DNA of 64,000 nucleotides from a candidate division LCP-89 bacterium (GTDB taxonomy: Bacteria > Electryoneota > B3-LCP): contig JALGVT010000003.1 in the NCBI GenBank assembly GCA_025774555.1, forward strand, positions 72,654 through 136,653, written 5' to 3'. The notes beneath the pieces were generated by a model. That model did no database searches and was not told the origin of the DNA. It saw only the letters and a list, made by a program, of their open reading frames with translations. This document shows positions 5,985-62,078 of the stretch, piece after piece. The position numbers were made by a program, and so were the translations under genes. Positions within the stretch are counted from its first letter, which is position 1. Each line of letters opens with the position of its first letter.

Positions 5985-6589
5985 CAGACCTGGAAAAAAC
6001 GAAAGAATTGTCGGTGAGCGTCAATCTGAAAGAGTGCAGTGACGAGGTGTTGATCGCACGTTTTCAGGCAGGTGAGTTGGCTTCTTTTGAGGAGATCGTC
6101 GGTCGCTACCAGGGGCAGTTGATCAATTTCGTAGGTCGTCTCCTGAGTGATCGCATTACCGCCGAGGATATTGTGCAGGAGACCTTCCTGCGCGTCTATC
6201 GTAATAAACATCGCTATAAGGAGATCGCCAAATTTTCAACCTGGATATATACCATTGCCGGAAATCTCGGTAGAACGGAACTCCGACGGCGCAAGATACG
6301 AAATATTTTTTCAATTTCTCAACGAGGCGAGACGGAGATAGATTACGAGATACCCGATCATGGAATCAACGTTGAAAAACAGGTTGAAGGGAAGATAAGG
6401 CAGGAGAGTATCCTGAAGGAGATCGGTAACCTGCCTGTTTATTTCCGCGAGGTTATTATCTTGCGGGACGTTCAGGATCTCTCTTACGAGGAGATCAGTC
6501 AGATTTTAAAGGTTCCGTTGGGCACAGTTAAGTCTCGTGTCAACCGGGGACGCACACAAATACAGAAGCGGTTGAAAAATAGATTATAA
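5981..6589 (+). CDS. ECF (sigma-24 family) RNA polymerase sigma factor
   Basis: Region 2 (QETFLRVYRNKHRY) and a region 4 helix-turn-helix (LGTVKSRVNRGRTQIQKRL). Its start overlaps the holA stop (ATGA). Confidence 0.85.
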   Translation: MTDLEKTKELSVSVNLKECSDEVLIARFQAGELASFEEIVGRYQGQLINFVGRLLSDRITAEDIVQETFLRVYRNKHRYKEIAKFSTWIYTIAGNLGRTELRRRKIRNIFSISQRGETEIDYEIPDHGINVEKQVEGKIRQESILKEIGNLPVYFREVIILRDVQDLSYEEISQILKVPLGTVKSRVNRGRTQIQKRLKNRL

Positions 6590-7346: not shown

Positions 7347-7373
7347 CTAACTAAAATATTACAGATCGTTGCA

Positions 7374-7407
7374 ATCCGCCCGAAGGTGATCGGGTGGATT
7401 TTTTATT
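7374..7407 (+). terminator. Rho-independent terminator after the anti-sigma gene
   Basis: Stem AATCCGCCCGA / TCGGGTGGATT with loop AGGTGA, followed by TTTTTATT. Confidence 0.6.
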
Positions 7408-7433
7408 GACTTTTCTGTAAAATGTATTATATT
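7406..7433 (+). promoter_or_regulatory. Sigma-70-like promoter (TTGACT-N16-TATATT) ahead of the small ORF and deoB
   Basis: TTGACT at 7406-7411 and TATATT at 7428-7433, read directly from the sequence. Confidence 0.45.
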
Positions 7434-7484
7434 ATAAGGTCTATGTAAAAGTAAGCTCAGATAATTAATAATCCAGAGGAATAA

Positions 7485-7679
7485 ATGGCAAAAGTACAGT
7501 CATTTGGCGATAAAGTCGCCAAGGCACATGCAAAGAAGACAGAATGCCCTGTATGCGGGCAGGTTGTGACCTACGTTAAAGTCGTAGCTCCAACCCAGAC
7601 TGAGGCAGGGAACTTCCGCTTTCGTTCCAGAATGCAGAGGTTATGTAAGTGTACCGAAGCTGAGTTGGCAGGGAAATAG
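7485..7679 (+). CDS. Small (64 aa) Cys-containing putative zinc-ribbon protein
   Basis: GAGGA ribosome-binding site 6 nt upstream; CPVCG...CKC motif; ends 2 nt before the deoB start. The coding call is tentative. Confidence 0.4.
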   Translation: MAKVQSFGDKVAKAHAKKTECPVCGQVVTYVKVVAPTQTEAGNFRFRSRMQRLCKCTEAELAGK

Positions 7680-7681: not shown

Positions 7682-8857
7682 TTGCCAACAGGTCGGTTTA
7701 CTGTCATCGTTTTGGATAGCGTCGGAGTCGGGGAATTGCCAGACGCTGATCTGTATAACGATGCCGGATCGAATACACTTGCGAACATCGCTGAGGATGT
7801 GGGCGGATTAGATCTACCCAATCTTGAATCTCTGGGATTAGGTAAAATTATCCCTGTTAAAGGTTTATCCGGGGATATCATAGCGAAAGCCGCTTATGGC
7901 ATCATGGCGGAAGCAGCCCCCGGAAAGGATAGTATCAGCGGTCACTGGGAACTGATGGGATACATCGCGCAGCAGCCACAGCCGACCTACCCGGAAGGTT
8001 TCCCCTTTGAGGTCATAACAGCTCTCGAGAAGGAGACCGGCAGAAAATTCATCGGGAATGTTGCTGCTTCTGGAACTGAGATCATAGAAAAACTTGGTAA
8101 AGAGCACGTTTCTACCGGTAGTCCGATCCTCTATACATCAGCCGATTCAGTGCTTCAGATTGCCGCGCATGAAGATGTAATTCCAGTCGAAGACCTTTAC
8201 CGAATCTGCAAGCAAGCGCGCGAGATAATGTCGGGGGAGAATGCGGTAGGCAGGATTATCGCCAGACCGTTTCAGGGCAGACCGGGGGATTTTCAACGCA
8301 CCGTCAACCGCAAAGATTATTCTATCCCGGCTCCGCAGGATACCGTTTTGGATTTGCTGAAGGATGCTGGTGTAAGCGTTCTGGGCATCGGTAAGATTGA
8401 GGATCTGTTCGCCGGCAGGGGTTTGACGGATTCTATCCATACAAGATCAAATCTCGAGGGAATGCAGACAACACTTCGTGCCATTCAGAGCGATATTTCA
8501 GGGATGATCTTTACCAATCTGGTTGATTTCGATATGCTTTGGGGACACCGCAATGACGTTGCAGGCTATTACCGCGGTTTGTGTGAATTCGACCGTTTTC
8601 TCCCGGAATTAATCGAAGCTCTTAAACCCGGTGATATACTTGTGCTGACAGCGGATCACGGTTGCGATCCCACGACTCCGTCCACCGACCATTCAAGAGA
8701 ACATGTGCCCGTTCTGGCTTATGGCGATGCTGTTTGCGGTGACGTGAATATTGGATTGCGATCGACCTTCGCTGATCTGGCAGCGTCGATAGTGGAGTAT
8801 TTTCAGATTACCGGCACCGGAGCGGGGGAGAGCTTCCTTAAAAAGATAATGGATTAA
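7682..8857 (+). CDS. deoB: Phosphopentomutase (TTG start)
   Basis: N-terminus RFTVIVLDSVGVGELPDADLYNDAGSNTL plus metal-site motifs (TADHGCDP, HSREHVP) typical of DeoB. Confidence 0.9.
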   Translation: MPTGRFTVIVLDSVGVGELPDADLYNDAGSNTLANIAEDVGGLDLPNLESLGLGKIIPVKGLSGDIIAKAAYGIMAEAAPGKDSISGHWELMGYIAQQPQPTYPEGFPFEVITALEKETGRKFIGNVAASGTEIIEKLGKEHVSTGSPILYTSADSVLQIAAHEDVIPVEDLYRICKQAREIMSGENAVGRIIARPFQGRPGDFQRTVNRKDYSIPAPQDTVLDLLKDAGVSVLGIGKIEDLFAGRGLTDSIHTRSNLEGMQTTLRAIQSDISGMIFTNLVDFDMLWGHRNDVAGYYRGLCEFDRFLPELIEALKPGDILVLTADHGCDPTTPSTDHSREHVPVLAYGDAVCGDVNIGLRSTFADLAASIVEYFQITGTGAGESFLKKIMD

Positions 8858-8878: not shown

Positions 8879-10453
8879 ATGCATTTAGTATCAAGAATTA
8901 TTGCAATTGCATTCTTCGTGATGTTATCGGTCTCATTGACATTTGGAGAAGACATCTCATTGTACCCACCCAATGTGCAGGCTGTGCTTGATAGCACAGG
9001 CGACAATCGAGGCGAGTTGGAAACAGTCCTGGAACATTACTCTGCCGATATCGATTCACTGAAATTACAGGCTGCATATTATTTGATCGCCAACATGCAA
9101 GGGCATAATTATGTTACCTACTCCCTGAATGATTCTATTGGAAATGAAATCGAATTAAATGTCTTAGATTACCCTGATTTCAAGGCGCTGATTGCCGCAT
9201 GTGACACTCTTGAAGAACAACACGGTGAAATCGATTTTGAGAAAAAGGATAAAATCGAAGACATAGACGTCATCAAGGCGGATTTTCTGATAAAACAGAT
9301 CGATTGGGCTTTTCGAGCCTGGCGCGAGAAACCGTGGGCGAAAGGGCTTTCATTCGATCAATTCTGCGAATATATTCTACCCTATCGAGGCAGCAGCGAG
9401 CCCCTTGAAGATTGGCGAGAAACCTTCTGGGACAAATATGCGCATATAGCCGATAGTCTGGATAATCCATCCGATCCTATCGAAGTAACTGCTCTTATAA
9501 ACGATGACATTAAATCCTGGTTCTCCTTCGATCCGCGTTACTATCTGCATCCTACCGATCAGGGGTTGTCTGAGATGCTCGAGAACCGTATGGGCAGATG
9601 CGAAGATATGACCAATCTCACCATCTACGCTATGCGGGCGAACGGGTTGGCAGTAACTAGCGACTACACGCCTTACTGGGCGAACACAGGGAACAATCAC
9701 GCCTGGAACGCCATCGTAACCGCGGATGGTAATGTCGTTCCTTTTATGGGCGCGGAAGCTAATCCCGGCAAGTATAATTTAGCTCATAAAATGGCGAAAA
9801 CCTATCGCAAGATGTTCAGCGAACAGAAGGATAATCTGATCTTTCAGGCAAGAAAGCAAGAAAAGGTTCCCCGCTGGCTCGCCGGTAAAAACTATAAGGA
9901 TGTAACCTCTGAATATATCGACGTTTCCGACGTGGCGATCGCCTTCGATCCTGAAGCGCCCGATTCGATTGACATAGCCTACCTCTGTGTGTTCAATACG
10001 GGCGAATGGGGAGCGATCCACTGGGGACGGATTGAAGATGGCTTAGCATATTTCACGGATATGGGGATGGATATTGTCTATCTGCCGGCGCTTTATATCG
10101 ACAAAAAGATCACACCATGGGGAGCGCCATTCATACTCGATTGTGATGGAGCTATAAAAACGCTGCTGCCTGCTGACGAAGCCACTATCACAGTTAAGCT
10201 GACCTCAACGACAAAGCGGAAATTGTTGGAATCGACTGACGGTATCGTAGAGAGCAGCTTAACTGCAGGAGTGGAATACGAGCTGTCCGCCTGGGATAAC
10301 GGCTGGCAATCCCTGGGTAAGCAGATTGCCACAGATAAACCGCTCACGTTTGAAGACATTCCCGCAGGATGTCTGTATTGGCTCACCGTAGATGGATCTG
10401 AAAAAGACGAGCGTATCTTTACCATTGAAGATGGGAAACAGGTGTGGTGGTAG
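8879..10453 (+). CDS. Secreted transglutaminase-like superfamily (Cys-His-Asp) protein
   Basis: Signal peptide; core motif GRCEDMTNLTIYAMRANGLAV (Gly-x-Cys...Arg-x-x-Gly) followed by NHAWNA (His-x-Trp), which defines transglutaminase-like cysteine protease folds. Confidence 0.7.
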   Translation: MHLVSRIIAIAFFVMLSVSLTFGEDISLYPPNVQAVLDSTGDNRGELETVLEHYSADIDSLKLQAAYYLIANMQGHNYVTYSLNDSIGNEIELNVLDYPDFKALIAACDTLEEQHGEIDFEKKDKIEDIDVIKADFLIKQIDWAFRAWREKPWAKGLSFDQFCEYILPYRGSSEPLEDWRETFWDKYAHIADSLDNPSDPIEVTALINDDIKSWFSFDPRYYLHPTDQGLSEMLENRMGRCEDMTNLTIYAMRANGLAVTSDYTPYWANTGNNHAWNAIVTADGNVVPFMGAEANPGKYNLAHKMAKTYRKMFSEQKDNLIFQARKQEKVPRWLAGKNYKDVTSEYIDVSDVAIAFDPEAPDSIDIAYLCVFNTGEWGAIHWGRIEDGLAYFTDMGMDIVYLPALYIDKKITPWGAPFILDCDGAIKTLLPADEATITVKLTSTTKRKLLESTDGIVESSLTAGVEYELSAWDNGWQSLGKQIATDKPLTFEDIPAGCLYWLTVDGSEKDERIFTIEDGKQVWW

Positions 10454-10485
10454 CACTGAAGGATAAAATATAAACAGAGAATATC

Positions 10486-10806
10486 ATGCTTTTAGGCAGA
10501 GTAATTGGGACCGTCTGGGCGACGCGCAAGGACGATAAACTGGAGGGGATGAAATTCCAGATCGTCCGCGCGGTGGATACGGACTATAAACCGCTGAATA
10601 ACTTTGTCGTGGCGGTGGACAGCGTCGGCGCGGGGGCGGGCGAGATCGTGCTGATCGCGCAGGGATCGTCCGGCAGGCTAACCTGGCTGACGAAAGACAA
10701 GCCGGTCGATGCGGTTATCATGGCTATAGTTGACCGCTTAGACGTTGAAGTGCCGGAATCAGAATGGGAAGAGAACTTAAGCTCACCAGGTGGAACTAAG
10801 CGATGA
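10486..10806 (+). CDS. EutN/CcmL/PduN-family bacterial microcompartment vertex (BMC-P) protein
   Basis: MLLGRVIGTVWATRKDDKLEGMKF...AVDSVGAGAGEIVLIAQGSSGR...DKPVDAVIMAIVD matches the CcmL/EutN pattern (RV-GTV-ST-K...VGAG-E-VL...GS-R...PVDA-AIVD). Confidence 0.8.
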   Translation: MLLGRVIGTVWATRKDDKLEGMKFQIVRAVDTDYKPLNNFVVAVDSVGAGAGEIVLIAQGSSGRLTWLTKDKPVDAVIMAIVDRLDVEVPESEWEENLSSPGGTKR

Positions 10807-11084
10807 ACTTAGCGAAAGTTATCGGCACCATCTGGGCAACGGTTAAGGATGAGCATCTTGACAACTCCAAGCTGCAACTGATTCAGCCACTCACTGAGGA
10901 GGGCAAAAAGATGGGCAGCGTTATTGCTGCGGTAGATACCGTCGGAGCGGGGCAGAGAGAGATTGTTTTCTATGTGACCTCCCGCGAAGCGGCGCTGTCT
11001 TTCCCTGAACCGTTGTTGACGCCCGTCGATGCCGCCATAGTTGGTATCGTTGACCGGGTAGAACGTTATCAAAGGAATTCCTAA
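10803..11084 (+). CDS. Second EutN/CcmL-family BMC vertex protein (ATGA overlap with the first)
   Basis: MNLAKVIGTIWATVKDEHLDNSKLQLIQ...AVDTVGAGQREIVFYV...PVDAAIVGIVD. A hairpin GGCAACC...GGTTGCC plus a T-run follows at about 11125-11160. Confidence 0.8.
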   Translation: MNLAKVIGTIWATVKDEHLDNSKLQLIQPLTEEGKKMGSVIAAVDTVGAGQREIVFYVTSREAALSFPEPLLTPVDAAIVGIVDRVERYQRNS

Positions 11085-11166
11085 ATAAAACAAACTATCA
11101 CCGCTGAAAAAGTCGTACAACATTGGCAACCATGATTTGTGACAGGTTGCCGTTTTAATTAAAACT

Positions 11167-19973: not shown

Positions 19974-20873
19974 ATGAGTGTACTGGTAGTTGGATCAGCA
20001 GCGTTGGATTCAGTTAAAACGCCAACGGGTGAAGTAACGGACGCTTTGGGCGGATCGGCGTTTTACTTTGCCGCCGCGGCGAGTTACTTCAGTCCGGTGA
20101 AAATCGTTGCGGTGGTCGGTGAAGATTTCCCAATGGGAAAAATAGATTTTTTAAAAGAGAGAAATGTCGATCTAAAAGGTTTGGAAGTCGCTCAGGGGAA
20201 AACTTTCAGGTGGTCAGGCATCTATCACCAGGACATGAATCAGCGCGATACGCTCTCTACGGAATTGAACGTCTTCGAGAGCTTCTCGCCCAAACTTCCG
20301 GACGAATATCGACAAACACCATATATCTTTTTGGCGAATATCCACCCTGCGCTGCAGTTGGACGTTCTCAATCAGGTGGATAATCCTCGTTTTGTCATGC
20401 TGGACACCATGAATCTCTGGATCGATACCGACCTCGAGGGGTTGAAGAAAGTGATGGCAAAGCTCGATGCCATTATACTGAACGACCAGGAAACACGGCA
20501 GATCACCGGAGAGAACAACTTGATAAAAGCGGCTAAAGAGGTAACAAAACTGGGACCCACAACCGTCATTGTCAAAAAGGGTGAGCACGGCGCATTCATA
20601 GTCTCTCAGGACGATTTTTTCGCACTACCGGCATTTCCCATCGAAAACCTTTTCGATCCGACAGGAGCAGGGGATTCATTTGCGGGCGGTATGATCGGGT
20701 GTCTGGCTAAGCAAGATAATCTGTCCGCTGATAATTTCCGTAGGGCGTTGGTATATGGCACGGTAACGGCTTCATTTACGGTGGAAAAATTCTCTATTGA
20801 CAGATTACGCGAAATCACCATGGATGACATTGAATCACGCTACCAGAAAATGCAGGATATGACGAAGTTCTAA
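19974..20873 (+). CDS. PfkB/ribokinase-family sugar or sugar-phosphate kinase
   Basis: N-terminal GG motif (DALGGSAFYFAAAA) and C-terminal DPTGAGDSFAGGMIG anion-hole motif. Confidence 0.85.
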   Translation: MSVLVVGSAALDSVKTPTGEVTDALGGSAFYFAAAASYFSPVKIVAVVGEDFPMGKIDFLKERNVDLKGLEVAQGKTFRWSGIYHQDMNQRDTLSTELNVFESFSPKLPDEYRQTPYIFLANIHPALQLDVLNQVDNPRFVMLDTMNLWIDTDLEGLKKVMAKLDAIILNDQETRQITGENNLIKAAKEVTKLGPTTVIVKKGEHGAFIVSQDDFFALPAFPIENLFDPTGAGDSFAGGMIGCLAKQDNLSADNFRRALVYGTVTASFTVEKFSIDRLREITMDDIESRYQKMQDMTKF

Positions 20874-21011
20874 TTGCACAGTAATCAACTGGTGTAAAAG
20901 CCGTTTTTTTACCTTTTACCTTGACTTCAAAGATAAAATGAGTTAAATTTCCAGATTAGACATCTATCGGAGTGCGGCAGAATCACGATTATAAAAACGG
21001 CAAGATGGCAG

Positions 21012-22043
21012 ATGCGCGTAGAAACTTTAGAATGGCTCGCTGACGAAGAAAAGGTTTGCTTGGTTGCACAGACGAAGCTCCCCGGAAAACTCGAATATAT
21101 CGTAACGGATAACTACCTCGTGATGTGCGATGCGATCCGCCGTCTGGAAGTGCGCGGCGCTCCGGCAATTGGATGCGCTGGCGCGTACGGCGTTGTAATC
21201 GGCGCGCTGTCGATAGATGATACCGATTTCAAGCAGTTCAGCGCTGAACTGCGGCGCATCATGGATGAGCTTCGCGCTACGCGCCCCACAGCAGTCAATC
21301 TCTTCTGGGCAATCGACCGGATGGAGAAAGTATTCAACGAACAGTCCGATATCAAAGCCGCTCAGCAGGCACTGATCAAGGAAGCAGTTGAAATACACCG
21401 AGAAGATGCCGAAATGTGCCGCAGGATCGGAAAGAATGGAGCTGCATTGCTATCAGATGGGATGACCGTCCTGACGCACTGTAATGCTGGTTCTCTCGCA
21501 ACTGGCGGTATGGGAACGGCATTAGCGCCGATCTATACTGCGCAGGATCAAGGTAAGAATATAAAGGTCTTCGCCGATGAAACCCGCCCGTTGTTACAGG
21601 GCGCTCGCTTGACTTCATGGGAACTCCAGCAAAACGGCGTTGAAGTAACATTGATATGTGACAACATGGCTGCAGTGGTTATGCGTAAAGGCTGGATTGA
21701 CGCAGTGATAGTCGGATCAGACCGAATCGCCTGCAACGGAGACGTTGCCAATAAGATCGGCACGTTTACCGTTGCGCTGCTGGCAAAACAGTTCGGCGTG
21801 CCTTTCTACGTTGCCGCTCCTACTTCGACTGTGGATACTTCACTGGCATCCGGAGACTTGATTCCCATAGAGGAACGAGCGGATGAAGAGGTTGCCGGCT
21901 TTAACGGCATCCGCACGGCTCCAGATGGTATAAGCACTTACAATCCAGCGTTTGATGTGACTCCGAATGAATTAGTCGCCGCGATTATCACCGAACAGGG
22001 AGTGCATAAACCGCCATTCGATTTCTCGTATTTAACGCAGTAA
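21012..22043 (+). CDS. eIF-2B alpha/beta/delta-family isomerase (MtnA-like S-methyl-5-thioribose-1-P isomerase or ribose-1,5-bisphosphate isomerase)
   Basis: GAPAIGCAGAYGV, TRPLLQGARLTSWEL and VIVGSDRIACNGDVANKIGT motifs of the MtnA/e2b2 family. Confidence 0.8.
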   Translation: MRVETLEWLADEEKVCLVAQTKLPGKLEYIVTDNYLVMCDAIRRLEVRGAPAIGCAGAYGVVIGALSIDDTDFKQFSAELRRIMDELRATRPTAVNLFWAIDRMEKVFNEQSDIKAAQQALIKEAVEIHREDAEMCRRIGKNGAALLSDGMTVLTHCNAGSLATGGMGTALAPIYTAQDQGKNIKVFADETRPLLQGARLTSWELQQNGVEVTLICDNMAAVVMRKGWIDAVIVGSDRIACNGDVANKIGTFTVALLAKQFGVPFYVAAPTSTVDTSLASGDLIPIEERADEEVAGFNGIRTAPDGISTYNPAFDVTPNELVAAIITEQGVHKPPFDFSYLTQ

Positions 22044-43630: not shown

Positions 43631-45652
43631 TTATTTTACCAGTATCATTTTCTGAACGAAAGAAAAATCCTCCGCTTGGATGCAGTAGAGATAGATACCA
43701 GAAGCTAGATAAGTTGCGTCAAATGTTACCCCGTGCAATCCAGCATCACGCCAGCCGCTGACTAATTCTGCGACCATTCTTCCCGACACATCATATACTG
43801 ACAGATTTACATGACTGTTTTCCGCCAACAGATAGCTGATGGTGGTGGTTGGATTAAACGGATTGGGATAGGCATGCATTAGCATGTTTTTATCTGGTAC
43901 ACTATCACTAAAAATCTTGTCTGCCGCCTCGCTGTCACTCATTCCGGTTCTCTCAGTGACTTCGTAGGTTATCAAGTTGTTTTCGAACAGGAATTGTGAT
44001 TGATGCCACCCAATCACCCGCTTCGGTGAATTGCTGGATACATCACTAGTCAGAACCAACCAGATTTTCGCACCATAACCCCAGCTATAGTATCCCAAAC
44101 CATCGAAGGGAAGATCACCCGTTTCAAGGGAATTCTCAATGTGCAGTGTGCCATCAGTTTCCGGCGTACCAGAGCCCAAAACGAGCAGGTTCCAACCGGG
44201 CCAGGGATCAGGATAGTAGATCAAGCTGTAGTTTTTTGCAGGATTCAAACCTATTCCATCGAAGATATAGCTGAATTCTGGACCAGTCGAATTGAATATC
44301 ATTTCACCTGCAATCTCACTTGTCTGGATTGGCTGCCATGTAGATGGGTGCTTCTTATAAAGCATTAATGATTCACCCACAATAGTGAACTCGACATTTT
44401 TATTCACCATTGCGCCCGCCCAATAACCTCCCAATCCAGATGAATGGAAGCTCTCTTCGGTTAAAAGCAGTTGAACGTTATATTGTCCAAGCGGTAATAA
44501 TGTATTACCGGGCGTTGGTCTGTCGTTTTGCCATTCAGCGTAGATACCTTCGGTATATGGGCCTCCTGTCATGTCATAGGCAATGCTGGACGAGCTGGTG
44601 CTGAAGGTATGCCATTTCGTATCAGAGTCATTTGATCCAGGGGAACGTTGACTCTCCTTCCATAGCACGTGATAGCTGCTGTTCAGGTTAAATTCGAGGT
44701 CTGCGTTACCATTATCATCGGTAGTGAAGAAATCGAACAGCAGGTACCCTTCGAAGATGTAGGTTGGATCACTAAGACGAGGAGTGATGTAGGCATCAAC
44801 TCGGTTTCCTGATCCTGGAGCTTGTTCAAACCATCTTCCAGCATAACCAATGCTCTGGTTTGACCAGTCATCACCCCCGGTAACCCATTGCGGATCATTT
44901 TCCGGTTTTCCAACCAATTTCACTTGATAGGAGAAATTTGGCTTTAACCCGACTGCTGACATAGAACCGCAGAACGTAGTGCCGACATCGTGGTATGTAA
45001 CCGTTACATTAGGATGATATTTCTTCTCATAGGTCACTAATTCAACTTCCAGAAGAAACTGCGATACATTCCATCCTGTCATACAACAGGCAGTTTGATT
45101 GACATAGTTGGAAGGCACCAACCAGATTTTTGCACCCGGATTCGGATCACCTGCTGCCGGAAGATCACCGGTATCTACACTACCTTCGAGATGCAGATCC
45201 CCTATGGTGGTGGGAGTTCCTGATCCCAGAACGATGAGGCCATTTCCTGGCCAGGGATCAGGATAGTAGATCAACAGGTATTCAACTATGTTAAGCCCCG
45301 AAGCATCAAATTCATATTCAAACGTCGGTCCTGTTGGGCTGTAGATGAGAGTTCCCGATGCAGCGCCTGGCACCGGCTGCCAGGTGGATGGATCTTTTAT
45401 ACTCAATTGTATAGACCGCTCTGGCTCGATATAATAATCGAACCGATCCTGATAATCACTGGCATAGAGATTATTGGCAACGTCCATCATCCTATAGGTA
45501 GTTGTGGACCATGTGGTAACATTGCCTGCTGCTTCCAGTGATTGTGTTACTTCACCTGTAAAGCTGACATTTACAATTACCATACATGTAATTAGACAGA
45601 CTAATAATAGATATGCTTGTCGCATATTAACCTCCCTTTGTAAAGTTAGCAA
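43631..45652 (-). CDS. Secreted protein with T9SS C-terminal sorting domain; internal tandem duplication
   Basis: Signal peptide; C-terminal ...YPNPFNPTTTISYLL...LSVYDVSGRMVAELV...GIYLYCIQAEDFSFVQKMILVK is a T9SS C-terminal domain. Repeated module ...LIYYPDPWPG(N/W)xL(I/L)VLGSGTP...GDLP occurs twice. Confidence 0.8.
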   Translation of the reverse strand: MLTLQREVNMRQAYLLLVCLITCMVIVNVSFTGEVTQSLEAAGNVTTWSTTTYRMMDVANNLYASDYQDRFDYYIEPERSIQLSIKDPSTWQPVPGAASGTLIYSPTGPTFEYEFDASGLNIVEYLLIYYPDPWPGNGLIVLGSGTPTTIGDLHLEGSVDTGDLPAAGDPNPGAKIWLVPSNYVNQTACCMTGWNVSQFLLEVELVTYEKKYHPNVTVTYHDVGTTFCGSMSAVGLKPNFSYQVKLVGKPENDPQWVTGGDDWSNQSIGYAGRWFEQAPGSGNRVDAYITPRLSDPTYIFEGYLLFDFFTTDDNGNADLEFNLNSSYHVLWKESQRSPGSNDSDTKWHTFSTSSSSIAYDMTGGPYTEGIYAEWQNDRPTPGNTLLPLGQYNVQLLLTEESFHSSGLGGYWAGAMVNKNVEFTIVGESLMLYKKHPSTWQPIQTSEIAGEMIFNSTGPEFSYIFDGIGLNPAKNYSLIYYPDPWPGWNLLVLGSGTPETDGTLHIENSLETGDLPFDGLGYYSWGYGAKIWLVLTSDVSSNSPKRVIGWHQSQFLFENNLITYEVTERTGMSDSEAADKIFSDSVPDKNMLMHAYPNPFNPTTTISYLLAENSHVNLSVYDVSGRMVAELVSGWRDAGLHGVTFDATYLASGIYLYCIQAEDFSFVQKMILVK

Positions 45653-45760
45653 TTAACCATGAGGTGGTGAGTTAAACAATTGGATACGCCGTATTCTCCT
45701 GTGAATGATCTCATTAAACTGGTTATATCATTGCTGATGTATTTATGACTACTAAATGGT

Positions 45761-45805
45761 AAAAACATCAATCGTGGCCTCTGGGTGACCACGATTGATG
45801 TTTTT
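45761..45805. terminator. Bidirectional rho-independent terminator (17-bp perfect stem)
   Basis: AAAAACATCAATCGTGG ... CCACGATTGATGTTTTT with an 11-nt loop; T-runs on both strands; sits right after the minus-strand gene that ends at 45847. Confidence 0.7.
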
Positions 45806-45846
45806 GGCTGGTATCTGGTCGATAGCCTTAGATTTTACTCGTATTG

Positions 45847-47967
45847 CTACTTCATAAGCACAATCTTTCGAGTGATTGAATTGCCTTCAGCTTTCAAGCA
45901 AATGACATAGATACCTGATGCTAGCCACGATCCATTAAATGTTAATTCGTATGTTCCTGCATCTCGCCAGCCGTTGACCAGCACTGCGACCTGCCGTCCG
46001 AATGTGTTGTATACTGTCAGGCTTGTAAAGCTGTAAGTTGCAAGTTGGTAACTGATAGTCGTCAACGGGTTGAAAGGATTAGGATGTATTCCTGTTAATC
46101 TGAATTCCCCTGGTGCATCAGGCTGATTTGGCATAATCCCTGAGTTTTGATTCGATACGGTAATTATGAATTCGACTGGCTCTTCATAATCGATCGAGAT
46201 CAATTGGGTTGCCAGTAAATCGTAATCTATCCCCTGAATAATTGCAAATGCTTCATACTCGTCAGGCAGATTTTCGAGGATATCGGGAAATTCGATACAA
46301 ACCTCACCTGGTTGGGATGCTTCCAGCATCCCTTGCCACAGTTCAACCGATTCCGGTTCCACCGGGGAGCGATAATCGTTGCAGAATGAATCGCCAACAG
46401 GCGCTGACCATTCCGGATGTTCGAATGTGATTCGTACATAATCACCCGATGGGGCTATAGGTGGTACCGGGAGATCATACAGAGAGTCGAATCCATTTGT
46501 AGCATCCGGTTTGACGCCCAGGCGGGTCAATCGGTTCTGAATAGCGCCCTGTTCGACGAGAATCCCGATTTGCCAATCATCTTCGTCACCCTGATCAACA
46601 ATGGAATATTCTTTTGATGTGCCATGGTCATAGGGTGGATTCGTGATCATATCCAGGTTTTCCACCAGAGCTTGCAACCAATATCCCTCCCATGGAGTTA
46701 ATGTAGTCGCAGTCATGTAACTTCCTGTTCCGTTATTGAAGCTGTAGAATGCCGCAGAAATCCAGCCTGTAGTGACAGCATTCACAAAAGTATGTGTTGT
46801 AATTCCGTCAGTGAACAGCAGATCATCACGAGAAACGGGTGCTGCCATGGCGCAACCCACCATGTTCCAATTCAGAGAGAGTGGAATAGTGACCGGATTT
46901 ACAGCCGTTAATCCTGTAACGTCAATCAGGGCGCTGTTTTCCAGCGCAAGCCAATAACCGTATCCGTGATCAACGTTTTGAACAAGCCCATAACCACCTG
47001 CCTGGGAGTAATCATAGACGAAATAGGCTCCTGTGACATCGTCACCGTAAATGTCTGCGATGGCGGTACTTGGCGGAATCAGGGGAATACTGGTTAAATG
47101 CCAGCCGACGTTGAAGCTACTCTCCATATACCCTGATGCGATTGTGAACGGACTGCTCATGATTGTTTCACCTGAGTTACCCGCCCAATCCTGTGCCTCT
47201 ATTTTAATGAGTGCTTCAGTGCTGATGGTCCCCGGAGTTGTCCACAAATAACTCGTCGTTTCACCAGTGATATTATCAATAAGTGTCCATGATGTACCAT
47301 TATTAAGCGAATAATACAGGTCTGCAGACCGGATTGGTGAAACGTCTGTGTATGACCAGGTGACGGTATATCCTGTATTTGTCAGTAAGGTGATTCCCGG
47401 AGTGGGATACGTTATACTGATGGACGGTGGAGTCCCATCCCCAAGCCGTAAATTGAAGGTGTGAACGGCGAGAGAGGCAGTATAATTATAGGTATTACTT
47501 TCTCTGATGTTTTGGTAGGTTCCGGTATCACTATCGTAGAGCACCACACCGTATGATCCCGGGTAGGAAGGTCCGATGGTAAAAGTTAGATCCACAGTCT
47601 CACTATTTTGATCGGTATCGACCTCAAAATCATAGATTTTCACCGCGTTGGTCAGGTCGTCGTTTCCGTTTCTTACATCCACCATGAAATTATCGCCGAA
47701 TATGCTGCTCCACTCCGGATGGGGAAAGTAGGTTGTTAAGTATTCAGAAACAGGTGGGGCGGGTTCAGGAACATCTATCCCTGAATCGTATCCATCCGTA
47801 GCTGTTGCATCAAGGGCTGCGTAGTTACCATCGTCAGTGAGGACAGTCTCGAATCCGGTATCGATCATGCTGGTTATTAGCACGCTGTTTTCGTATTGTG
47901 CGTGAGCAGAATACTGGAAAACACTCAGGACAATTCCTATACTGAAAAATCGGATAGCAAGTCTCAT
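45847..47967 (-). CDS. Secreted protein with T9SS C-terminal sorting domain; shares a roughly 300-aa module with the neighbouring GH5 enzyme
   Basis: Signal peptide; C-terminal HPNPFNPLTTISYQL...LTVYNTFGRQVAVLV...GIYVICLKAEGNSITRKIVLMK. An internal HPEWSAPVGD module and an SIPLIP...GDDVTGAYFVYDYSQ...GYWLALEN module are both also present in the 48040..51666 protein. Confidence 0.8.
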   Translation of the reverse strand: MRLAIRFFSIGIVLSVFQYSAHAQYENSVLITSMIDTGFETVLTDDGNYAALDATATDGYDSGIDVPEPAPPVSEYLTTYFPHPEWSSIFGDNFMVDVRNGNDDLTNAVKIYDFEVDTDQNSETVDLTFTIGPSYPGSYGVVLYDSDTGTYQNIRESNTYNYTASLAVHTFNLRLGDGTPPSISITYPTPGITLLTNTGYTVTWSYTDVSPIRSADLYYSLNNGTSWTLIDNITGETTSYLWTTPGTISTEALIKIEAQDWAGNSGETIMSSPFTIASGYMESSFNVGWHLTSIPLIPPSTAIADIYGDDVTGAYFVYDYSQAGGYGLVQNVDHGYGYWLALENSALIDVTGLTAVNPVTIPLSLNWNMVGCAMAAPVSRDDLLFTDGITTHTFVNAVTTGWISAAFYSFNNGTGSYMTATTLTPWEGYWLQALVENLDMITNPPYDHGTSKEYSIVDQGDEDDWQIGILVEQGAIQNRLTRLGVKPDATNGFDSLYDLPVPPIAPSGDYVRITFEHPEWSAPVGDSFCNDYRSPVEPESVELWQGMLEASQPGEVCIEFPDILENLPDEYEAFAIIQGIDYDLLATQLISIDYEEPVEFIITVSNQNSGIMPNQPDAPGEFRLTGIHPNPFNPLTTISYQLATYSFTSLTVYNTFGRQVAVLVNGWRDAGTYELTFNGSWLASGIYVICLKAEGNSITRKIVLMK

Positions 47968-48039
47968 TTCAGGTTCCTTTCAGTCGAATTTATCTTTTTG
48001 ATATTCACTTTATATAATTGGTTTACTTGAGAACATAAG

Positions 48040-51000
48040 TCATTCCCAGGTAACTCTGTAAAAATAGACGACGTTCAGAAGTGCATAGAGGTCTAAGTAT
48101 TGCGAAACTGCAGTACTATCTATAGGTGATATCCCTGTTGTTTCGAAGTAGGGATCGGTAGAGCGGTAGATGTAATAGACTGATGCACCTGCCATATCAC
48201 TCCAATCTAACAAGACGTCTAAGTCCGACAATGATAAAGTCAGGTCATCAATCGCCTGAATATCGTTTGAAACGATGATATCGATAACATATGGATCCGT
48301 ATAGTTGAAAGTAAACTGAGGCGTCTGCAACAGGTCAACGGTACCACCAAAATGTTCGACACGCGCAGAATACCCAGCAGGCAGAATCGATAGAATATTA
48401 TCGAAATCAACCGTTACCATTCCCTCTTCAGATGCTTCGATAATGCCTTCCCAGGTTTTTACGGATGAAGAATCAAGCGGCGCGCGGGTATCAGTGCTGA
48501 AAATATCTCCCACAGGTGCGAGCCATTCGGGATGATAGAAGACCAGGCGAATATAATCTCCACTGGGTGGAGTCGGTGGCGCAGACATATCGTACCATAC
48601 GTCATATTCATCTGTGGCATTATAATGGACTCCGATCCCCGGAAGATAATCAGACAGATTTCCAAGCGTGACCTCAATCTGAACGAACCAATCATCCTCT
48701 TCATCAGAATTATCTGCTATCATGGGCAATGGTATTTTTTCGGATACTGGAGAGTAGGTCAGCATTTGTAAGCCTGACGATAAAGTCTGCAACCAGTAAC
48801 CTCCCCAGGAATGCAGAGAATCGCTCGATTGGTAGCTCCCCATGGAATTATTATATTGGTACACCGCTGGTGAAATCCATCCGCTATTGACGGCATCGTT
48901 GAATGATTGCGTTATTATACCATTTGTGAAATGAAGAGACTGTAGTAAGATCGGATCAGAATAGGCCGCGCCTACAATATTCCAGTTTAAATCGAGTGGT
49001 AGGAGTGTTGAGTCTCCGGGAACAGTACCCGTCAGATCGACAGCGGCTCCGTTTTCCAGGGCAAGCCAGTAGCCAGCTCCATGCTCAACCTCATCAATCA
49101 GTTCATAACCATATATTTGCGAATATTCATAGACATAGTAAGCACCGGTGATATCATCACCGAAGATGCTGTCGATATTGGCGTATTCCGGGATCAACGG
49201 AATACTCATCATATGCCATCCGGAGCTGAAAACGTGCTCAACATAGACGGAGATGCTGTTCAACAGGTTCATAGAATCAGCATGAGCCTCCAATATCGAA
49301 ATTGTTGAAGTGTGTGCTGGATAGTAAACTCCAAAACCATCGTAATCAGGATAATCATCATGGTATAATATCCAGAGATTGGATCCCGCTGAAGAGTTAC
49401 CTGCTTGCGCCCCAGCAAGGATGACATCCAACCAGCTCTGGAAATACTGGTTGCGAGTAGATATTGGCTGTGATTTGCCGTATTCTTCTAAAATCAGCGG
49501 TTTTCCCAGAAGGGCATCGGTGTCCGCGATATGATCATTTGTCCAGTTAATAGAGGTTGTTAAATTCATCCCCCACCAGTCCGGCCAAGCATGATAACAA
49601 GCAAAGTCAATAGCTTCAGGTTGGTGATTCCGGATAAAGTCAACGCCTTTACTTTCCATCCAGCCGCTGGGATTGTGAGCTGGTCCTGTTGGCCCATAAA
49701 AGCCTTCCGAGCCTGTGGTTACCATATGCAGCGAATCAATTGACTTGATATAAACTGCGGTCTCTTCAATCCAGGTCTGGAGGATATCACCACCCGCATC
49801 GGATGTGCATTCAGGTTCATTTGCCAGTTCCCAGGCAAAAACGGTTGGATCCTCCTTATAGACACGTCCATTGAAGACGTTGACGCGATTAAGAACAGTA
49901 TTTACGTGATTTTCATACCACTCGATACAGAGTTCATCCTGGTAGAAATCATCATGCTCACCTGAAGTTAGCAGGGTCTTCATCTGATCGGAGTGAGATG
50001 ATATTATCGCAATCGTACTCACATCGGAATCATAAACGCTATACCAGCCTTGATGTTCGTGTGGTGGATCTCCAATCCAGGGATCGCCAATGCTCCAGTA
50101 ACTTCCATAGGGTAAAACCGGTCTCCCTTCACCAGCCCAGGACCAGATATTCGTCCCTGCGGCCGGCTGTCCAGAAGATGCCGAAGTATACACTTCATCA
50201 AACATAGCATTGAAGAAAGTATTTCGCCATGTTGTTGACGAACTTGGATCGTAGCTCTCGCTGTCGCGTGCAAGTCCGAATTCTTCAAGCACCATCGGTT
50301 TACCCAGAGAAACAGCTTCAGCTTCGTGATTGTTGAAGTACGTTATTGCAGATGCTTCCGAGCTTGCGTATGTACCGCCCGGATTTGCAGGATCGTACCA
50401 GCCCCAGTTTTGTGGCCAGATATGAATGGTGGTATAGTCGATATCAGGACCGTTGTGGTTCTGGATAAAGTCTAAACCATTCCATGAAGGCCAGGGGGTG
50501 TCACCTTCGCAGCCAGTAGTAACGAGATGATTTGAATCCAAGGATTTGATATAAGCGGCACAATTATCAATCCAGATGTTGAACGCTGCAGCGTTGTTGT
50601 TGAAGCCTCGCGGTTCATTGCACAACTCCCATGACATGATAGCAGGTTCATCACTATATGTTGTGCTCGTATATGGATTTGTGCGGTTGATGATGAAGGC
50701 AATGTGATCCTCAAAGTCCTGCATCGCCCCTGCATTTGAATAGAAGTCCGAGGCGTAATCCTGGAAAGCATCCCAGCTTCCTCCCGGCTCGGGAGGCGGA
50801 TATGGAATTGGACCGCCACCATTCCAATTCACATATTGAGCCATACCTCCCGACCATTGCCAGAAGTTATTCAAGCACATTACCGCTCGAATACCTCGCT
50901 GTTTCATGGCGTAAATAAGGTAATCCAAACCATCGAGAACGTCGGGATCATAAACGCCCGGTGAGGTCTGAAAAGAAGGCACCATACGCCAGGGCTCGGT

Positions 51001-51666
51001 GTCAGGACCTTCCGAACCTGTCATGATGCGCAGATTCGTTATTCCAATCGCTTTAAGAGAATCCAGTTCACGATTAAGTCTATCTCTATCACCTCCGGAT
51101 CCGTTGGAAGCGAGGTTTAATCCGTACCAGTAGTTGGCGCCGACGTAGTAATACTTCCTGCCACCGATTTCGAAATGAGTGCCATTCACTTCGACGAAGC
51201 CGGAAGTCCCCAGAGTATAAGCTGAATCCGCCCAATCGACATACTGATTCATGCCGCCGTAATCGTCCCAATTGTTTATGAACGGCAGGATAAGCCTGAT
51301 ACCTTCTAGATCAGCTTTATGGAGCACATAATCCAGTCCCTGGAAGACATATTCCTGGTAAATTCCCGGGCTGGTCTGCAGAGAGTTCCACTGTGTCACA
51401 CCATCATTAAAAGCCCAGGTGCGCAGAACAGACATATCCATTGCCGCTATCTCTTCGATGACCTCATCCACCGCATAGCGAAGTCCCATATCAGCGGCAT
51501 AGACCATCTGGTAGTAATTATTGGCGCCGGCGTAGTAAAAGGGATTTCCATTCAACGTGAAATGGTTACCATCGCGCGTGGCGATTCCAATATTCTCCGC
51601 GTTAGCAGAGAAAATGAAGACCATAATACTGGGTACCAGGATGAGGTGCTGGATAAATCTGGTCAT
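48040..51666 (-). CDS. Multi-domain family 5 glycoside hydrolase (beta-mannanase-like) with a second GH5 domain apparently inserted into the first
   Basis: Signal peptide. GH5 mannanase strand motifs appear in order: VLRTWAFNDG, ILPFINNWDDYGG...YVDWA. A complete second GH5 domain follows (YYYVGANYWY, NLRIMTGSEG, MCLNNFWQWSGG, WELCNEPR, TTGCEG, IHIWPQNWG, LEEFG). Then come the remaining strands of the first barrel (FAWELANEPEC, VTTGSEGFYG, YHAWPDWWG, LILEEYGKS). A roughly 440-aa C-terminal region shares modules with the 706-aa neighbour. Confidence 0.8.
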   Translation of the reverse strand: MTRFIQHLILVPSIMVFIFSANAENIGIATRDGNHFTLNGNPFYYAGANNYYQMVYAADMGLRYAVDEVIEEIAAMDMSVLRTWAFNDGVTQWNSLQTSPGIYQEYVFQGLDYVLHKADLEGIRLILPFINNWDDYGGMNQYVDWADSAYTLGTSGFVEVNGTHFEIGGRKYYYVGANYWYGLNLASNGSGGDRDRLNRELDSLKAIGITNLRIMTGSEGPDTEPWRMVPSFQTSPGVYDPDVLDGLDYLIYAMKQRGIRAVMCLNNFWQWSGGMAQYVNWNGGGPIPYPPPEPGGSWDAFQDYASDFYSNAGAMQDFEDHIAFIINRTNPYTSTTYSDEPAIMSWELCNEPRGFNNNAAAFNIWIDNCAAYIKSLDSNHLVTTGCEGDTPWPSWNGLDFIQNHNGPDIDYTTIHIWPQNWGWYDPANPGGTYASSEASAITYFNNHEAEAVSLGKPMVLEEFGLARDSESYDPSSSTTWRNTFFNAMFDEVYTSASSGQPAAGTNIWSWAGEGRPVLPYGSYWSIGDPWIGDPPHEHQGWYSVYDSDVSTIAIISSHSDQMKTLLTSGEHDDFYQDELCIEWYENHVNTVLNRVNVFNGRVYKEDPTVFAWELANEPECTSDAGGDILQTWIEETAVYIKSIDSLHMVTTGSEGFYGPTGPAHNPSGWMESKGVDFIRNHQPEAIDFACYHAWPDWWGMNLTTSINWTNDHIADTDALLGKPLILEEYGKSQPISTRNQYFQSWLDVILAGAQAGNSSAGSNLWILYHDDYPDYDGFGVYYPAHTSTISILEAHADSMNLLNSISVYVEHVFSSGWHMMSIPLIPEYANIDSIFGDDITGAYYVYEYSQIYGYELIDEVEHGAGYWLALENGAAVDLTGTVPGDSTLLPLDLNWNIVGAAYSDPILLQSLHFTNGIITQSFNDAVNSGWISPAVYQYNNSMGSYQSSDSLHSWGGYWLQTLSSGLQMLTYSPVSEKIPLPMIADNSDEEDDWFVQIEVTLGNLSDYLPGIGVHYNATDEYDVWYDMSAPPTPPSGDYIRLVFYHPEWLAPVGDIFSTDTRAPLDSSSVKTWEGIIEASEEGMVTVDFDNILSILPAGYSARVEHFGGTVDLLQTPQFTFNYTDPYVIDIIVSNDIQAIDDLTLSLSDLDVLLDWSDMAGASVYYIYRSTDPYFETTGISPIDSTAVSQYLDLYALLNVVYFYRVTWE

Positions 51667-51694: not shown

Positions 51695-53341
51695 TTATAG
51701 TTGATCGAACTCGCTTGGATCGATCAGAAGGTGGGGTGTGATCAATACGACCACTTCGGTTTTCTCGATTTCGGTAGTAGTATTTCCGAAAAGGTAGCCT
51801 AAAATGGGGATGTCTCCCAGGAAGGGGATGCGGTTTCTCGTCTCTCGCTTGTTTTCGGATACCAGACCACCGATACCAATGGTCTGTCCATTGTCAATCT
51901 GCACCCTGGTCTCCACTGATCTCACGCTGGTTACCGGCAGATCTGTGGCGCCGGATCCAGTGACGTCGCTGACCTCAATCACGATATCTGCCGTGATGTT
52001 GGCTTCACTGCCGACATAAGGCGTGATCATCAGCATGATGCCGGTAGCTATTTTTTCCAGGGTCACATAGCTGTAGGCAGAAGATCCCTGGAGCAGTGAA
52101 TAATAGGCTTCCTTCCCAATGCGAATTGCGGCTTCCTGTCCGTCAGAGGTAGTGATGCGGGGGTTAGCGCGGATGTTTGCCTGATCTTTTATGGCTAATG
52201 CCTGAAGTGCTAAACGCAGATCGAAGACCATACCTTGGTGGTGATCTCCGGTTCTGAACATTTCGCTTAAGAAGAAGGATGTGTCGCTGTAAGAGGGCAG
52301 CAGTTTTGACAGTTTGAACGCATCATTCCCTTTCGTGCCTGACCAATCCCATTCCAAACCGAGCGAACGCCTGGCTTCGTCGCCCATCTCCACGACAAGT
52401 GCTTCTATCAATACCTGCTGAGGGGGGTGGTCAACAGCAGCTAACTCCTCCTTGAAACGGTCGATGATTGCAGGGGGAGCAGATATAACCAGCGTATTGG
52501 TTTTTTCGTTCACCTTAATAAAATTATTATAATAGTCGGGTATGAGTTTAGGAACTTCAGCCGCCGGAAGGTGCTTGGGCTTGACCGCCTCTGTCTGCGC
52601 CAGTAGAGGGAAAGAGGGATTGTCAGCCACCGGCGCGCCGACGATGTAATAGTTTTCAATTTTACGGTAACTATAACCCATCGGCGACAGGATCAGACTG
52701 AGCGCCTGTTCGAGGGGTACGTCGATTATATCAAGCGTTATGTAACCTCTCACCATGGCATCCGGAATGATGGCAATCTCTGTCTGTGCGGAAAGATCCA
52801 TCAGCGCCTGGCGGATATCCGTTTCATAGAAGGAATTGGACACCAGCGGTCCGGAGTGATTTGAATCGGTCATAGAAGGCTCTTCACCGGAATCATTCTC
52901 CTGCCCCTGGAGCTTCTTCAACGCGGCTACACCCTGCTCTGCGCTGCTCTCCCAACTGGCGAGTAGAGGATAATTGGCTTCCACCCGTGGAAAATACTGC
53001 CTCAGCAGGTTGAAGCACCGCGCTGCTTTAACCGGGTCTCCCAGCGCTATATTACACCGCCCCAGCAGATACAGCACTTCGTCCATCCGGTAGTACGATG
53101 GCTCCTGCTGTCCGGTGGATCGCAACAGGTCCGCGGCATCCACGTAATCGCCGGAATCCATCAAGGTGGTGGCTCTCTCGATTATTCCGCTGATACCATC
53201 AGGATATATGCTCTCCATTTCCTGCGGCAGCAGGGGGGGTGACTGCGTGCAAGAAAGGATAAGTAATCCGAGTGATAGCGCGCAACAAACGGGAACCCAT
53301 GAGCGTATAATTTTATAGAAGCGGTTGTAGGGACGTATCAT
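51695..53341 (-). CDS. Secretin (GspD/PilQ family) with N-terminal lipoprotein TPR-like (pilotin-like) region
   Basis: Lipobox LILSCTQS, then a TPR-like segment and secretin N-domain (FYETDIRQALMDLSAQTEIAIIPDAMVRG). C-terminal secretin motif IPFLGDIPILGYLFGNTTTEIEKTEVVVLITPHLL. Confidence 0.8.
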   Translation of the reverse strand: MIRPYNRFYKIIRSWVPVCCALSLGLLILSCTQSPPLLPQEMESIYPDGISGIIERATTLMDSGDYVDAADLLRSTGQQEPSYYRMDEVLYLLGRCNIALGDPVKAARCFNLLRQYFPRVEANYPLLASWESSAEQGVAALKKLQGQENDSGEEPSMTDSNHSGPLVSNSFYETDIRQALMDLSAQTEIAIIPDAMVRGYITLDIIDVPLEQALSLILSPMGYSYRKIENYYIVGAPVADNPSFPLLAQTEAVKPKHLPAAEVPKLIPDYYNNFIKVNEKTNTLVISAPPAIIDRFKEELAAVDHPPQQVLIEALVVEMGDEARRSLGLEWDWSGTKGNDAFKLSKLLPSYSDTSFFLSEMFRTGDHHQGMVFDLRLALQALAIKDQANIRANPRITTSDGQEAAIRIGKEAYYSLLQGSSAYSYVTLEKIATGIMLMITPYVGSEANITADIVIEVSDVTGSGATDLPVTSVRSVETRVQIDNGQTIGIGGLVSENKRETRNRIPFLGDIPILGYLFGNTTTEIEKTEVVVLITPHLLIDPSEFDQL

Positions 53342-59041: not shown

Positions 59042-59956
59042 TCACAATGCTTCGATTTTTTCCTCCAGTTGGTTCCAAAGCTGCTTAATGTCTTCGGCAA
59101 CTCCGTTGTTTGAATATTCCACTACGCTGATTCCCGCAATCTGCGCTTTTGTGAAGGCGCTATCGTAACGAATTTTGCCGATAACTTTCACTCCGTCAGC
59201 TAAAGCTTCATTTTCGATTTCGTTTGATATTTCCTGGTTTAAATCGCATTTGTTAATGCAGACGACCATGGGGATACTGAAGTGGCGCGTTAATTCGGCG
59301 ATACGCTTCAAATCATGCCGCCCGGCGACCGTTGGTTCGGTAACGGCTAGAACGAGATCAGCTCCAGTAAGGGAAGCTATGACGGGACAACCCACTCCCG
59401 GTGAACCATCGATGAAAAGATAGTCGATACCGGTCTCCTCGGCTAATTTCTTCGCCTCGTTTCGCACCAGAGTTACCAGTTTTCCAGAATTTTCTTCAGC
59501 TATCCCCAGACGGGCGTGAGCCATAGGTCCGAAGTGGGTATCTGAGCTGAACAGTTCTCCACAAATCGGAGTTTCCATCTCGATAGCTTTCTCGGGACAG
59601 AAAAAGGAGCATACTCCGCACCCCTCGCAGGCAATTTTATCTATTTCGTATTCGCAGTTGTTCGCTTCGATAGCGGGATCAAGCTTTTTTACGGCGTCAA
59701 AGCGGCACAGGTCATAGCATATTCCGCATGACGTGCATATTTCGGGATCTATCTTTGCCTTGTATCCAGCGCGAAAATCCTCATGATGGAGGATTTTCGG
59801 CTTCATAATGAGGTGTAAATCAGCCGCGTCCACATCGCAGTCAGCCACCACAGCATTATGCGCTAAAGCAGCAAGCGAAGCTACGATGCTGGTTTTTCCG
59901 GTGCCTCCTTTGCCGCTGATGATAACTATTTCTTTCATTTTACTGTTTTGCAGCAT
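59042..59956 (-). CDS. MinD/ParA-superfamily P-loop ATPase with inserted 2x[4Fe-4S] ferredoxin module (COG1149-type)
   Basis: Deviant Walker A ISGKGGTGKTS; two CxxCxxCxxxC(P) motifs (CTSCGICYDLC and CEGCGVCSFFCP) inserted in the ATPase fold. Confidence 0.8.
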   Translation of the reverse strand: MLQNSKMKEIVIISGKGGTGKTSIVASLAALAHNAVVADCDVDAADLHLIMKPKILHHEDFRAGYKAKIDPEICTSCGICYDLCRFDAVKKLDPAIEANNCEYEIDKIACEGCGVCSFFCPEKAIEMETPICGELFSSDTHFGPMAHARLGIAEENSGKLVTLVRNEAKKLAEETGIDYLFIDGSPGVGCPVIASLTGADLVLAVTEPTVAGRHDLKRIAELTRHFSIPMVVCINKCDLNQEISNEIENEALADGVKVIGKIRYDSAFTKAQIAGISVVEYSNNGVAEDIKQLWNQLEEKIEAL

Positions 59957-60294: not shown

Positions 60295-60377
60295 TCTCTT
60301 TTCCTCTGTTTTAGTTAAATTCATTTTACTTTCAATTTGATTCTCGATAAATGAATGGATTGTTCGATTCTATTTAA

Positions 60378-61247: not shown

Positions 61248-61289
61248 TATAGTAATATAATCCTTCGGTAAATCGGCTTTCTATAAGGC

Positions 61290-62039: not shown

Positions 62040-62078
62040 TTTGTTCTCCTTTCACGTTTATTGCTGTTTACTATTATT

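Follow-up and report, generated by a model that had tools for sequence, protein, structure and literature searches.

Bacterial microcompartments (BMCs) are closed at their vertices by pentamers of the EutN/CcmL family, and the question raised here is why a bacterium of candidate division LCP-89 should carry two genes for such vertex proteins (BMC-P) in a region that encodes no shell facet protein. The pair, EutN-1 and EutN-2, lies in a stretch of 64,000 nucleotides (assembly GCA_025774555.1, contig JALGVT010000003.1, positions 72,654 to 136,653), referred to below as the 64-kb window. We consider it likely that the pair supplies two of the three vertex pentamers of a fragmented (FRAG)-type BMC, with the BMC-H genes, the third BMC-P gene, and any cargo enzymes encoded elsewhere in the genome. 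The genes and signals of the locus, in window coordinates, are as follows.

7373..7400 (+), intrinsic-terminator-like hairpin ending the upstream extracytoplasmic function (ECF) sigma/anti-sigma unit; 11-bp stem with 6 GC pairs, then TTTTATTG
7406..7435 (+), sigma-70-like promoter candidate, TTGACT-16-TATATT, proposed from consensus similarity only (10/12 matches)
7485..7679 (+), 64-amino-acid (aa) Cys-rich (CPVC...CKC), zinc-ribbon-like open reading frame (ORF), co-conserved with the BMC-P pair
7682..8857 (+), deoB, phosphopentomutase with a TTG start; NF003766 and TIGR01696 above cutoff
8879..10453 (+), transglutaminase-core protein of 524 aa with a signal-peptide-like N terminus; PF01841, 33.3 bits
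10486..10806 (+), EutN-1, BMC-P vertex protein paralogue 1, 106 aa; PF03319, E 6e-29
10803..11084 (+), EutN-2, BMC-P vertex protein paralogue 2, 93 aa; PF03319, E 6e-25
11125..11156 (+), weak terminator-like hairpin and U-run after EutN-2, GGCAACC-13 nt-GGUUGCC-GUUUU

The vertex-protein pair and the fragmented microcompartment type

The preliminary description of this DNA claimed two overlapping genes of the EutN/CcmL family, and a Pfam profile search bears this out: EutN-1 (100.8 bits) and EutN-2 (88 bits) each match the whole of PF03319 EutN_CcmL (model positions 1-83 of 83), far above the cutoff of 25 bits. All three ORFs, the transglutaminase-like one included, have the coordinates first given. 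The two proteins are 41% identical to each other. Their reading frames share 4 bp (ATGA), and EutN-2 is predicted from this overlap to be translationally coupled to EutN-1. Among solved structures, EutN-1 is closest to 5V74 (E 5.7e-24), the vertex pentamer from an intact Haliangium ochraceum (HO) shell, and is 53% identical to it in a gapless alignment over residues 1-86; the best structure match of EutN-2 is 4I7A (E 7e-13). Assignment of EutN-1 to a named vertex protein was rejected in each case tried, the scores against the NCBIfam equivalog cutoffs being 83.4 bits for CcmL (cutoff, 125), 47.8 bits for ethanolamine EutN (cutoff, 118), and 30.6 bits for CsoS4 (cutoff, 120). As both proteins fall far under the CcmL, EutN, and CsoS4 equivalog cutoffs, they are regarded as generic BMC-P proteins and not as carboxysome or Eut vertex proteins. 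Carboxysome CcmL/CsoS4 and ethanolamine EutN have the PF03319 fold family in common with the pair, but they occur in a RuBisCO or Eut context, and neither surrounds the genes described here.

Six-frame searches of the window with phmmer, tblastn, and a five-sequence BMC-H hidden Markov model (HMM) detected no PF00936-like (BMC-H/BMC-T) sequence, and its genes include no aldehyde dehydrogenase, PTAC, DERA, RpiB, RuBisCO, or glycyl-radical enzyme. The earlier statement that the 64 kb contain neither a BMC-H gene nor a signature enzyme is thus upheld by six-frame searches and gene annotation alike. The remaining genes of the window all have housekeeping annotations, namely, ECF sigma and anti-sigma factors, pantothenate, IspD, ArgS, MtnA, DXR, and RseP, together with lipopolysaccharide and outer membrane biogenesis, glycosyltransferases, proteins with type IX secretion system (T9SS) tails, and a secretin.

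The neighborhoods of related genes were examined in two scans. An alignment of EutN-1 orthologues compared with species-representative genomes gave >553 relatives, of which the best 80 loci were tabulated (L007-L086), 75 of them with enough upstream sequence for deoB to be judged (informative genomes). The 64-aa ORF, used as the query against Joint Genome Institute (JGI) metagenomes, gave a further 25 loci (L087-L111). None of these 105 related loci contained a PF00936-like ORF within ±10 kb (L007-L086) or ±6 kb (L087-L111), as expected if the pair belongs to a FRAG system, because FRAG shell genes are dispersed. When the H. ochraceum BMC-H (an approximate query) was compared with a set of 5.8 billion proteins, the best 120 matches were 83 to 97% identical and none was tied to an LCP-89 genome or one of the Fibrobacterota-Chlorobiota-Bacteroidota (FCB) group; this search is uninformative about the lineage, because strong conservation within the BMC-H family means that only near-identical sequences were returned.

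In the BMC catalog of Sutter, Melnicki, Schulz, Woyke, and Kerfeld (2021, Nat Commun 12:3809; PMC8217296), FRAG BMCs have their shell genes at up to six genome sites. In their shell set, a BMC-P triplet (green, grey, and orange clades) is accompanied by either one BMC-H gene or two; they have few enzymes or none, and no encapsulation peptide was detected (PMC8217296). FRAG1, with 57 loci and called a “shell protein only” type, covers Ignavibacteria, Kryptonia, Bacteroidetes, Chlorobi, and Rhodothermaeota, and the tree files of the catalog contain BMC-H and BMC-P entries for FRAG1 Ignavibacteria (PMC8217296). FRAG3 covers Calditrichaeota, to which “KB1” (as printed) and LCP-89 each add a single member, and it combines the BMC-P triplet with two BMC-H genes and a DeoC aldolase adjoining one BMC-P; FRAG5, from Planctomycetes, contains pfam01791 and pfam02502. 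The function of FRAG BMCs was enigmatic to the catalog authors (PMC8217296).

Several lines of evidence favor placing the pair in this class. First, neither the window nor any scanned stretch of a related locus (105 in all) has BMC-H contiguous with BMC-P. Second, the nearest genome is LCP-89 B3_LCP, and LCP-89 is listed under FRAG3; more broadly, the taxa with EutN-1 orthologues in the relatives scan coincide with the catalog lists for FRAG1 and FRAG3. Third, the locus shares with FRAG1 and FRAG3 the presence of multiple BMC-P paralogues and the scarcity or absence of cargo enzymes nearby. It differs in having two BMC-P genes of the three, no third having been found within the window, and in that the catalog text is silent on two neighbors described below: phosphopentomutase (pfam01676) occurs in it 0 times, and the small Cys-rich ORF is not mentioned as a BMC-P neighbor (PMC8217296). 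That BMC-H genes lie at other sites and a DeoC aldolase lies by the third BMC-P is predicted from the catalog for genomes of this lineage. The type I BMC of H. ochraceum, the source of 5V74, also has its satellite locus, remote from the BMC-H gene, in which two BMC-P genes lie side by side, but this satellite holds a class II aldolase (pfam00596) where deoB is found here, and H. ochraceum has a recognizable main locus.

The pair is also conserved to a degree that sets it apart from its surroundings. The closest EutN-1 relative, from B3_LCP, is 92% identical, the next (Zixibacteria, Melioribacteraceae, Ignavibacteria, and BMS3Abin04) are 70 to 90% identical, and identity across phyla is 62 to 92%; EutN-2 directly follows EutN-1, in the same order, in 78 of the 80 tabulated loci. 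Synteny between the B3_LCP contig and the window extends over ∼20 kb and takes in the transglutaminase-like gene. Synonymous sites between the two are saturated, making dN/dS unusable, and nonsynonymous divergence (dN) and amino acid identity relative to flanking genes were used instead. EutN-1 and EutN-2 are 92 and 77% identical between the two contigs (dN, 0.07 and 0.20), compared with 61 to 68% for the flanking DeoB, Ham1, and transglutaminase-like proteins (dN of flanking genes, 0.25 to 0.31). Low dN and high identity relative to the flanks show that the pair is under strong purifying selection, its members being functional genes and not decaying remnants. The constraint on EutN-1 (92% against 61 to 68% for its neighbors; 62 to 70% across phyla) is unusual for a protein needed at only 60 copies per shell.

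The operon and its conserved partners

The strong terminator at 7373-7400 and the promoter-like site at 7406-7435 suggest that one transcription unit runs from the small ORF through EutN-2, with successive intergenic gaps of 2, 21, 32, and −4 nt. The order of the predicted operon would be the small zinc-ribbon ORF, deoB, the inserted transglutaminase-like gene, bmcP1, and bmcP2, placing the pair at the 3′ end. The preliminary description put a terminator after the pair. A hairpin with a U-run is indeed present, with a 7-bp GC-rich stem (11125-11131/11145-11151), a 13-nt loop, and GUUUU, and is plausible in this role; it is, however, weak, with a fold z-score of −1.66 (13 of 200 shuffles fold equally well), and the terminator scan made no call.

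The conserved neighbors of the BMC-P pair are a phosphopentomutase and the 64-aa Cys-rich ORF, both of which the preliminary description overlooked. DeoB scores 512.2 bits against NF003766 (cutoff, 256) and 468.6 bits against TIGR01696 (cutoff, 341.2). The NF003766 match spans residues 4-389 of 391, leaving no terminal extension able to serve as an encapsulation peptide. In 62 of the 80 tabulated loci, equivalent to 62 of the 75 informative genomes, a co-oriented deoB homologue lies directly upstream of EutN-1, and these represent several phyla. The gap between the two genes has a median of ∼560 bp and a minimum of 2 bp in the 80 loci. In Melioribacteraceae and Zixibacteria, for example, a PF01676 enzyme precedes the BMC-P pair and the intervening small genes differ. 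The deoB-BMC-P linkage persists even where the outer flanks and the genes in between have been replaced completely.

The small Cys-rich ORF ends 2 nt 5′ of deoB. Homologues precede deoB in LCP-89, Zixibacteria, L010, L011, and L085, and in the deoB-less loci of Bacteroidota, Kryptonia, and Prosthecochloris a homologue stands immediately 5′ of the EutN pair. Those recognized as CPxC...CKC ORFs are located as follows.

L028, 9730-9930; L030, 9733-9933; L073, 9721-9909
L094, L102, and L107-L111, ∼6001-6192

Among the 25 metagenome loci, the small ORF is followed directly by EutN-EutN in 11 (the contig of L105 stops inside EutN-1), by deoB-EutN-EutN in 4, by deoB and then the contig end in 3, and by deoB alone in 1; neither deoB nor EutN follows in 3 (L095, L096, and L098), and 3 contigs are too short to judge. 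The 64-aa protein matched no Pfam or NCBIfam family, and a word search returned only nine relatives, unnamed or “hypothetical.” An AlphaFold2 model (predicted local distance difference test score, ∼70) consists of a helix and a zinc-ribbon-like beta-hairpin, for which a fold search gave no significant neighbor. This candidate zinc-ribbon-like protein may be an unrecognized microcompartment accessory factor or regulator.

The space between deoB and EutN-1 is occupied differently in different lineages. In one LCP-89 sublineage, the transglutaminase-like gene sits precisely within it. Throughout Ignavibacteria and Melioribacteraceae it holds a ∼90-aa ORF and a ∼130-aa PIN-domain protein, and in Rhodothermales the slot directly upstream of the BMC-P pair holds a 4HBT hotdog thioesterase (PF03061).

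∼90-aa ORF and PIN-domain protein: ∼9320-9990 in L017, L021, L023, L024, L033, L043, L046, and L059; 9430-9992 in L003
4HBT thioesterase: L012, 7512-7994; L014, 9429-9842; L071, 9338-9931; L026, 1418-1888

The ∼90-aa ORF and PIN-domain pair resembles a toxin-antitoxin system yet is stably fixed in the operon, and the thioesterase may hint at acyl coenzyme A handling in the metabolism of the shell. As the occupant of the slot differs by lineage, the transglutaminase-like gene is a late arrival in a deoB-bmcP-bmcP unit of far greater age.

This distribution bears on the suggestion that the BMC-P pair works with the secreted transglutaminase-like protein, which we regard as scarcely credible. The layout that the preliminary description reported, with the pair co-oriented behind such a protein, is correct, and the protein matches PF01841 Transglut_core (cutoff, 23 bits) with Cys241, His274, and Asp283 present in the matched core. 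The signal peptide was judged by inspection only, from a Sec-signal-like N terminus (MHLVSRIIAIAFFVMLSVSLTFG/ED); no sequence relative was found in the PDB, and the C-terminal part of ∼240 aa belongs to no family. Co-orientation and gaps of 21 and 32 nt make cotranscription with the pair probable here, and the layout is conserved in B3_LCP. The gene is nevertheless restricted to 3 of the best 80 loci (L007-L009), it is missing from L010 and L011, where EutN-1 is 83 to 87% identical and deoB directly abuts it, and unrelated genes fill its place elsewhere. An exported protein, moreover, would not encounter a cytoplasmic shell. A partnership is effectively refuted by the distribution of the gene, and the emphasis first laid on the transglutaminase link gives way to an incidental association.

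Other genes of the window

A PfkB-family kinase and an IF-2B-family isomerase (19974-22043) were considered as a pentose-bisphosphate pathway, which was rejected: the isomerase scores as MtnA (TIGR00512, 433 bits; cutoff, 279), assigning the pair to methionine salvage. On the − strand, 43631-51666 encodes two proteins (673 and 706 aa) with T9SS C-terminal sorting domains, beside which lies a 1,208-aa protein without a Pfam family; a secretin gene (51695-53341) is upstream of this group. Two MinD/ParA-like 4Fe-4S ATPases, two PF02579 dinitrogenase FeMo-cofactor-binding-like proteins, and a DUF5320 protein are encoded at 59042-62438 (−), a conserved cluster typical of anaerobes that adjoins a sigma-54 activator.

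Possible function and alternative readings

A possible role for the FRAG1 and FRAG3 shells is indicated by the sugar-phosphate utilization (SPU) BMC, which has a DERA and RpiB-like signature, a BMC-P triplet, and a proposed substrate, deoxyribose-5-phosphate, that is the product of DeoB (PMC11585597). The SPU DERA is active on deoxyribose-5-phosphate, and the SPU study mentions deoB only as the cytosolic step producing the presumed SPU substrate (PMC11585597). DERA (pfam01791) and RpiB-type (pfam02502) genes, neither of which is in the 64-kb window, both lie beside the orthologous pair of one planctomycetotal locus, L070, where RpiB (PF02502) lies between the BMC-P genes and a DeoC aldolase (PF01791) comes after them.

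L070, 448-4469: BMC-P, RpiB with a ∼90-aa N-terminal extension, BMC-P, 91-aa ORF, 376-aa ORF, DeoC aldolase

The 91-aa ORF has weak BMC-P similarity (phmmer E 4e-08) and no Pfam match, and the 376-aa ORF has only a subthreshold Pfam match. The L070 locus resembles FRAG5 or SPU. SPU loci are compact, with DERA, RPI, aldehyde dehydrogenase, and BMC-H/BMC-T together, whereas the window has none of these.

DeoB, RpiB-like protein, and DERA are consecutive pentose-phosphate enzymes, and each is linked, in one phylum or another, to orthologues of this BMC-P pair; from this we infer an SPU-like role. We predict the following. (i) Nucleoside phosphorylases would yield (deoxy)ribose-1-phosphate. (ii) Cytosolic DeoB, without an encapsulation-type extension, would convert this to (deoxy)ribose-5-phosphate. 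(iii) The BMC-P pentamers would cap the twelve shell vertices, and through cotranscription with deoB their supply would follow that of the substrate. We propose tentatively, with slightly less than even credence, that FRAG1 and FRAG3 BMCs are deoxyribose-phosphate metabolosomes of the SPU kind, in which DeoB acts outside the shell and expression of vertex proteins is coupled to deoB. The wider claim, that the module reveals the function of FRAG1 and FRAG3 as nucleoside/deoxyribose-phosphate catabolism and that the zinc-ribbon protein is a BMC accessory factor that had gone unnoticed, is possible but more doubtful.

Several observations weigh against the combined picture of a dispersed FRAG shell with such a function. 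BMC-H genes are predicted for this lineage from the catalog (PMC8217296), whereas none was seen in the window or in the scanned parts of the 105 related loci; the catalog saw no encapsulation peptides in FRAG genomes; and the window lacks DERA, aldehyde dehydrogenase, and PTAC. Linkage to deoB is missing in ∼17% of informative genomes (Kryptonia, Chlorobi, and some Rhodothermales), and as deoB is a housekeeping gene, the linkage may in part have been passed down as synteny without functional meaning.

Two other explanations, both anticipated in some form by the preliminary description, must be weighed with these points in mind. It had suggested that a BMC locus elsewhere makes these satellite vertex genes. 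Shell genes elsewhere agree with the FRAG assignment, but a compact main locus does not, given the FRAG3 lineage. A stricter version, in which a compact and complete locus (PVM-like or rhamnose type) has the pair as an ordinary satellite of redundant vertex paralogues, could draw on the title of the LCP-89 genome paper (Youssef et al. 2019), which reports “microcompartment production,” and on carriers such as Melioribacter roseus that have a compact MIC4 locus besides FRAG1 (PMC8217296). We nevertheless think it unlikely: the pair has diverged less than the housekeeping genes beside it and is retained across phyla, unlike redundant copies, and the catalog places LCP-89 in FRAG3 and in no compact type (PMC8217296).

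The other suggestion, that the pentamer fold is used outside a microcompartment, found no positive support. In its fuller form, the BMC-P pair would act without a canonical BMC-H shell in the FCB group, in a compartment-independent role tied to pentose-phosphate handling, the pentamers having been recruited, e.g., to scaffold DeoB and the small zinc-ribbon protein or to act as their partner. The lack of a PF00936 gene near the pair in 105 related loci would suit this role, as would the several FRAG types without enzymes or encapsulation peptides (PMC8217296), the unusually high conservation of EutN-1, and the existence of multiple BMC-P paralogues, the reason for which is unknown according to the SPU study (PMC11585597). 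FRAG types are, however, defined by a shell composition that includes BMC-H, and FRAG1 BMC-H is listed for Ignavibacteria (PMC8217296); a pentamer from a real shell vertex can be aligned with EutN-1 without gaps; and planctomycetotal orthologues accompany SPU signature enzymes. A shell-free role is accordingly judged very improbable, more so than a redundant satellite, and the milder reading given above, in which the module reveals the function of the FRAG1 and FRAG3 shells, is more likely.

The puzzle of orphan vertex genes is already explained by a published FRAG class that includes LCP-89, and the finding as such is ordinary. Its new content is modest and consists of the deoB linkage across phyla and the small zinc-ribbon ORF. 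If the proposed function is true, FRAG shells would handle deoxyribose-5-phosphate derived from DNA and nucleoside scavenging, which provides a testable hypothesis.

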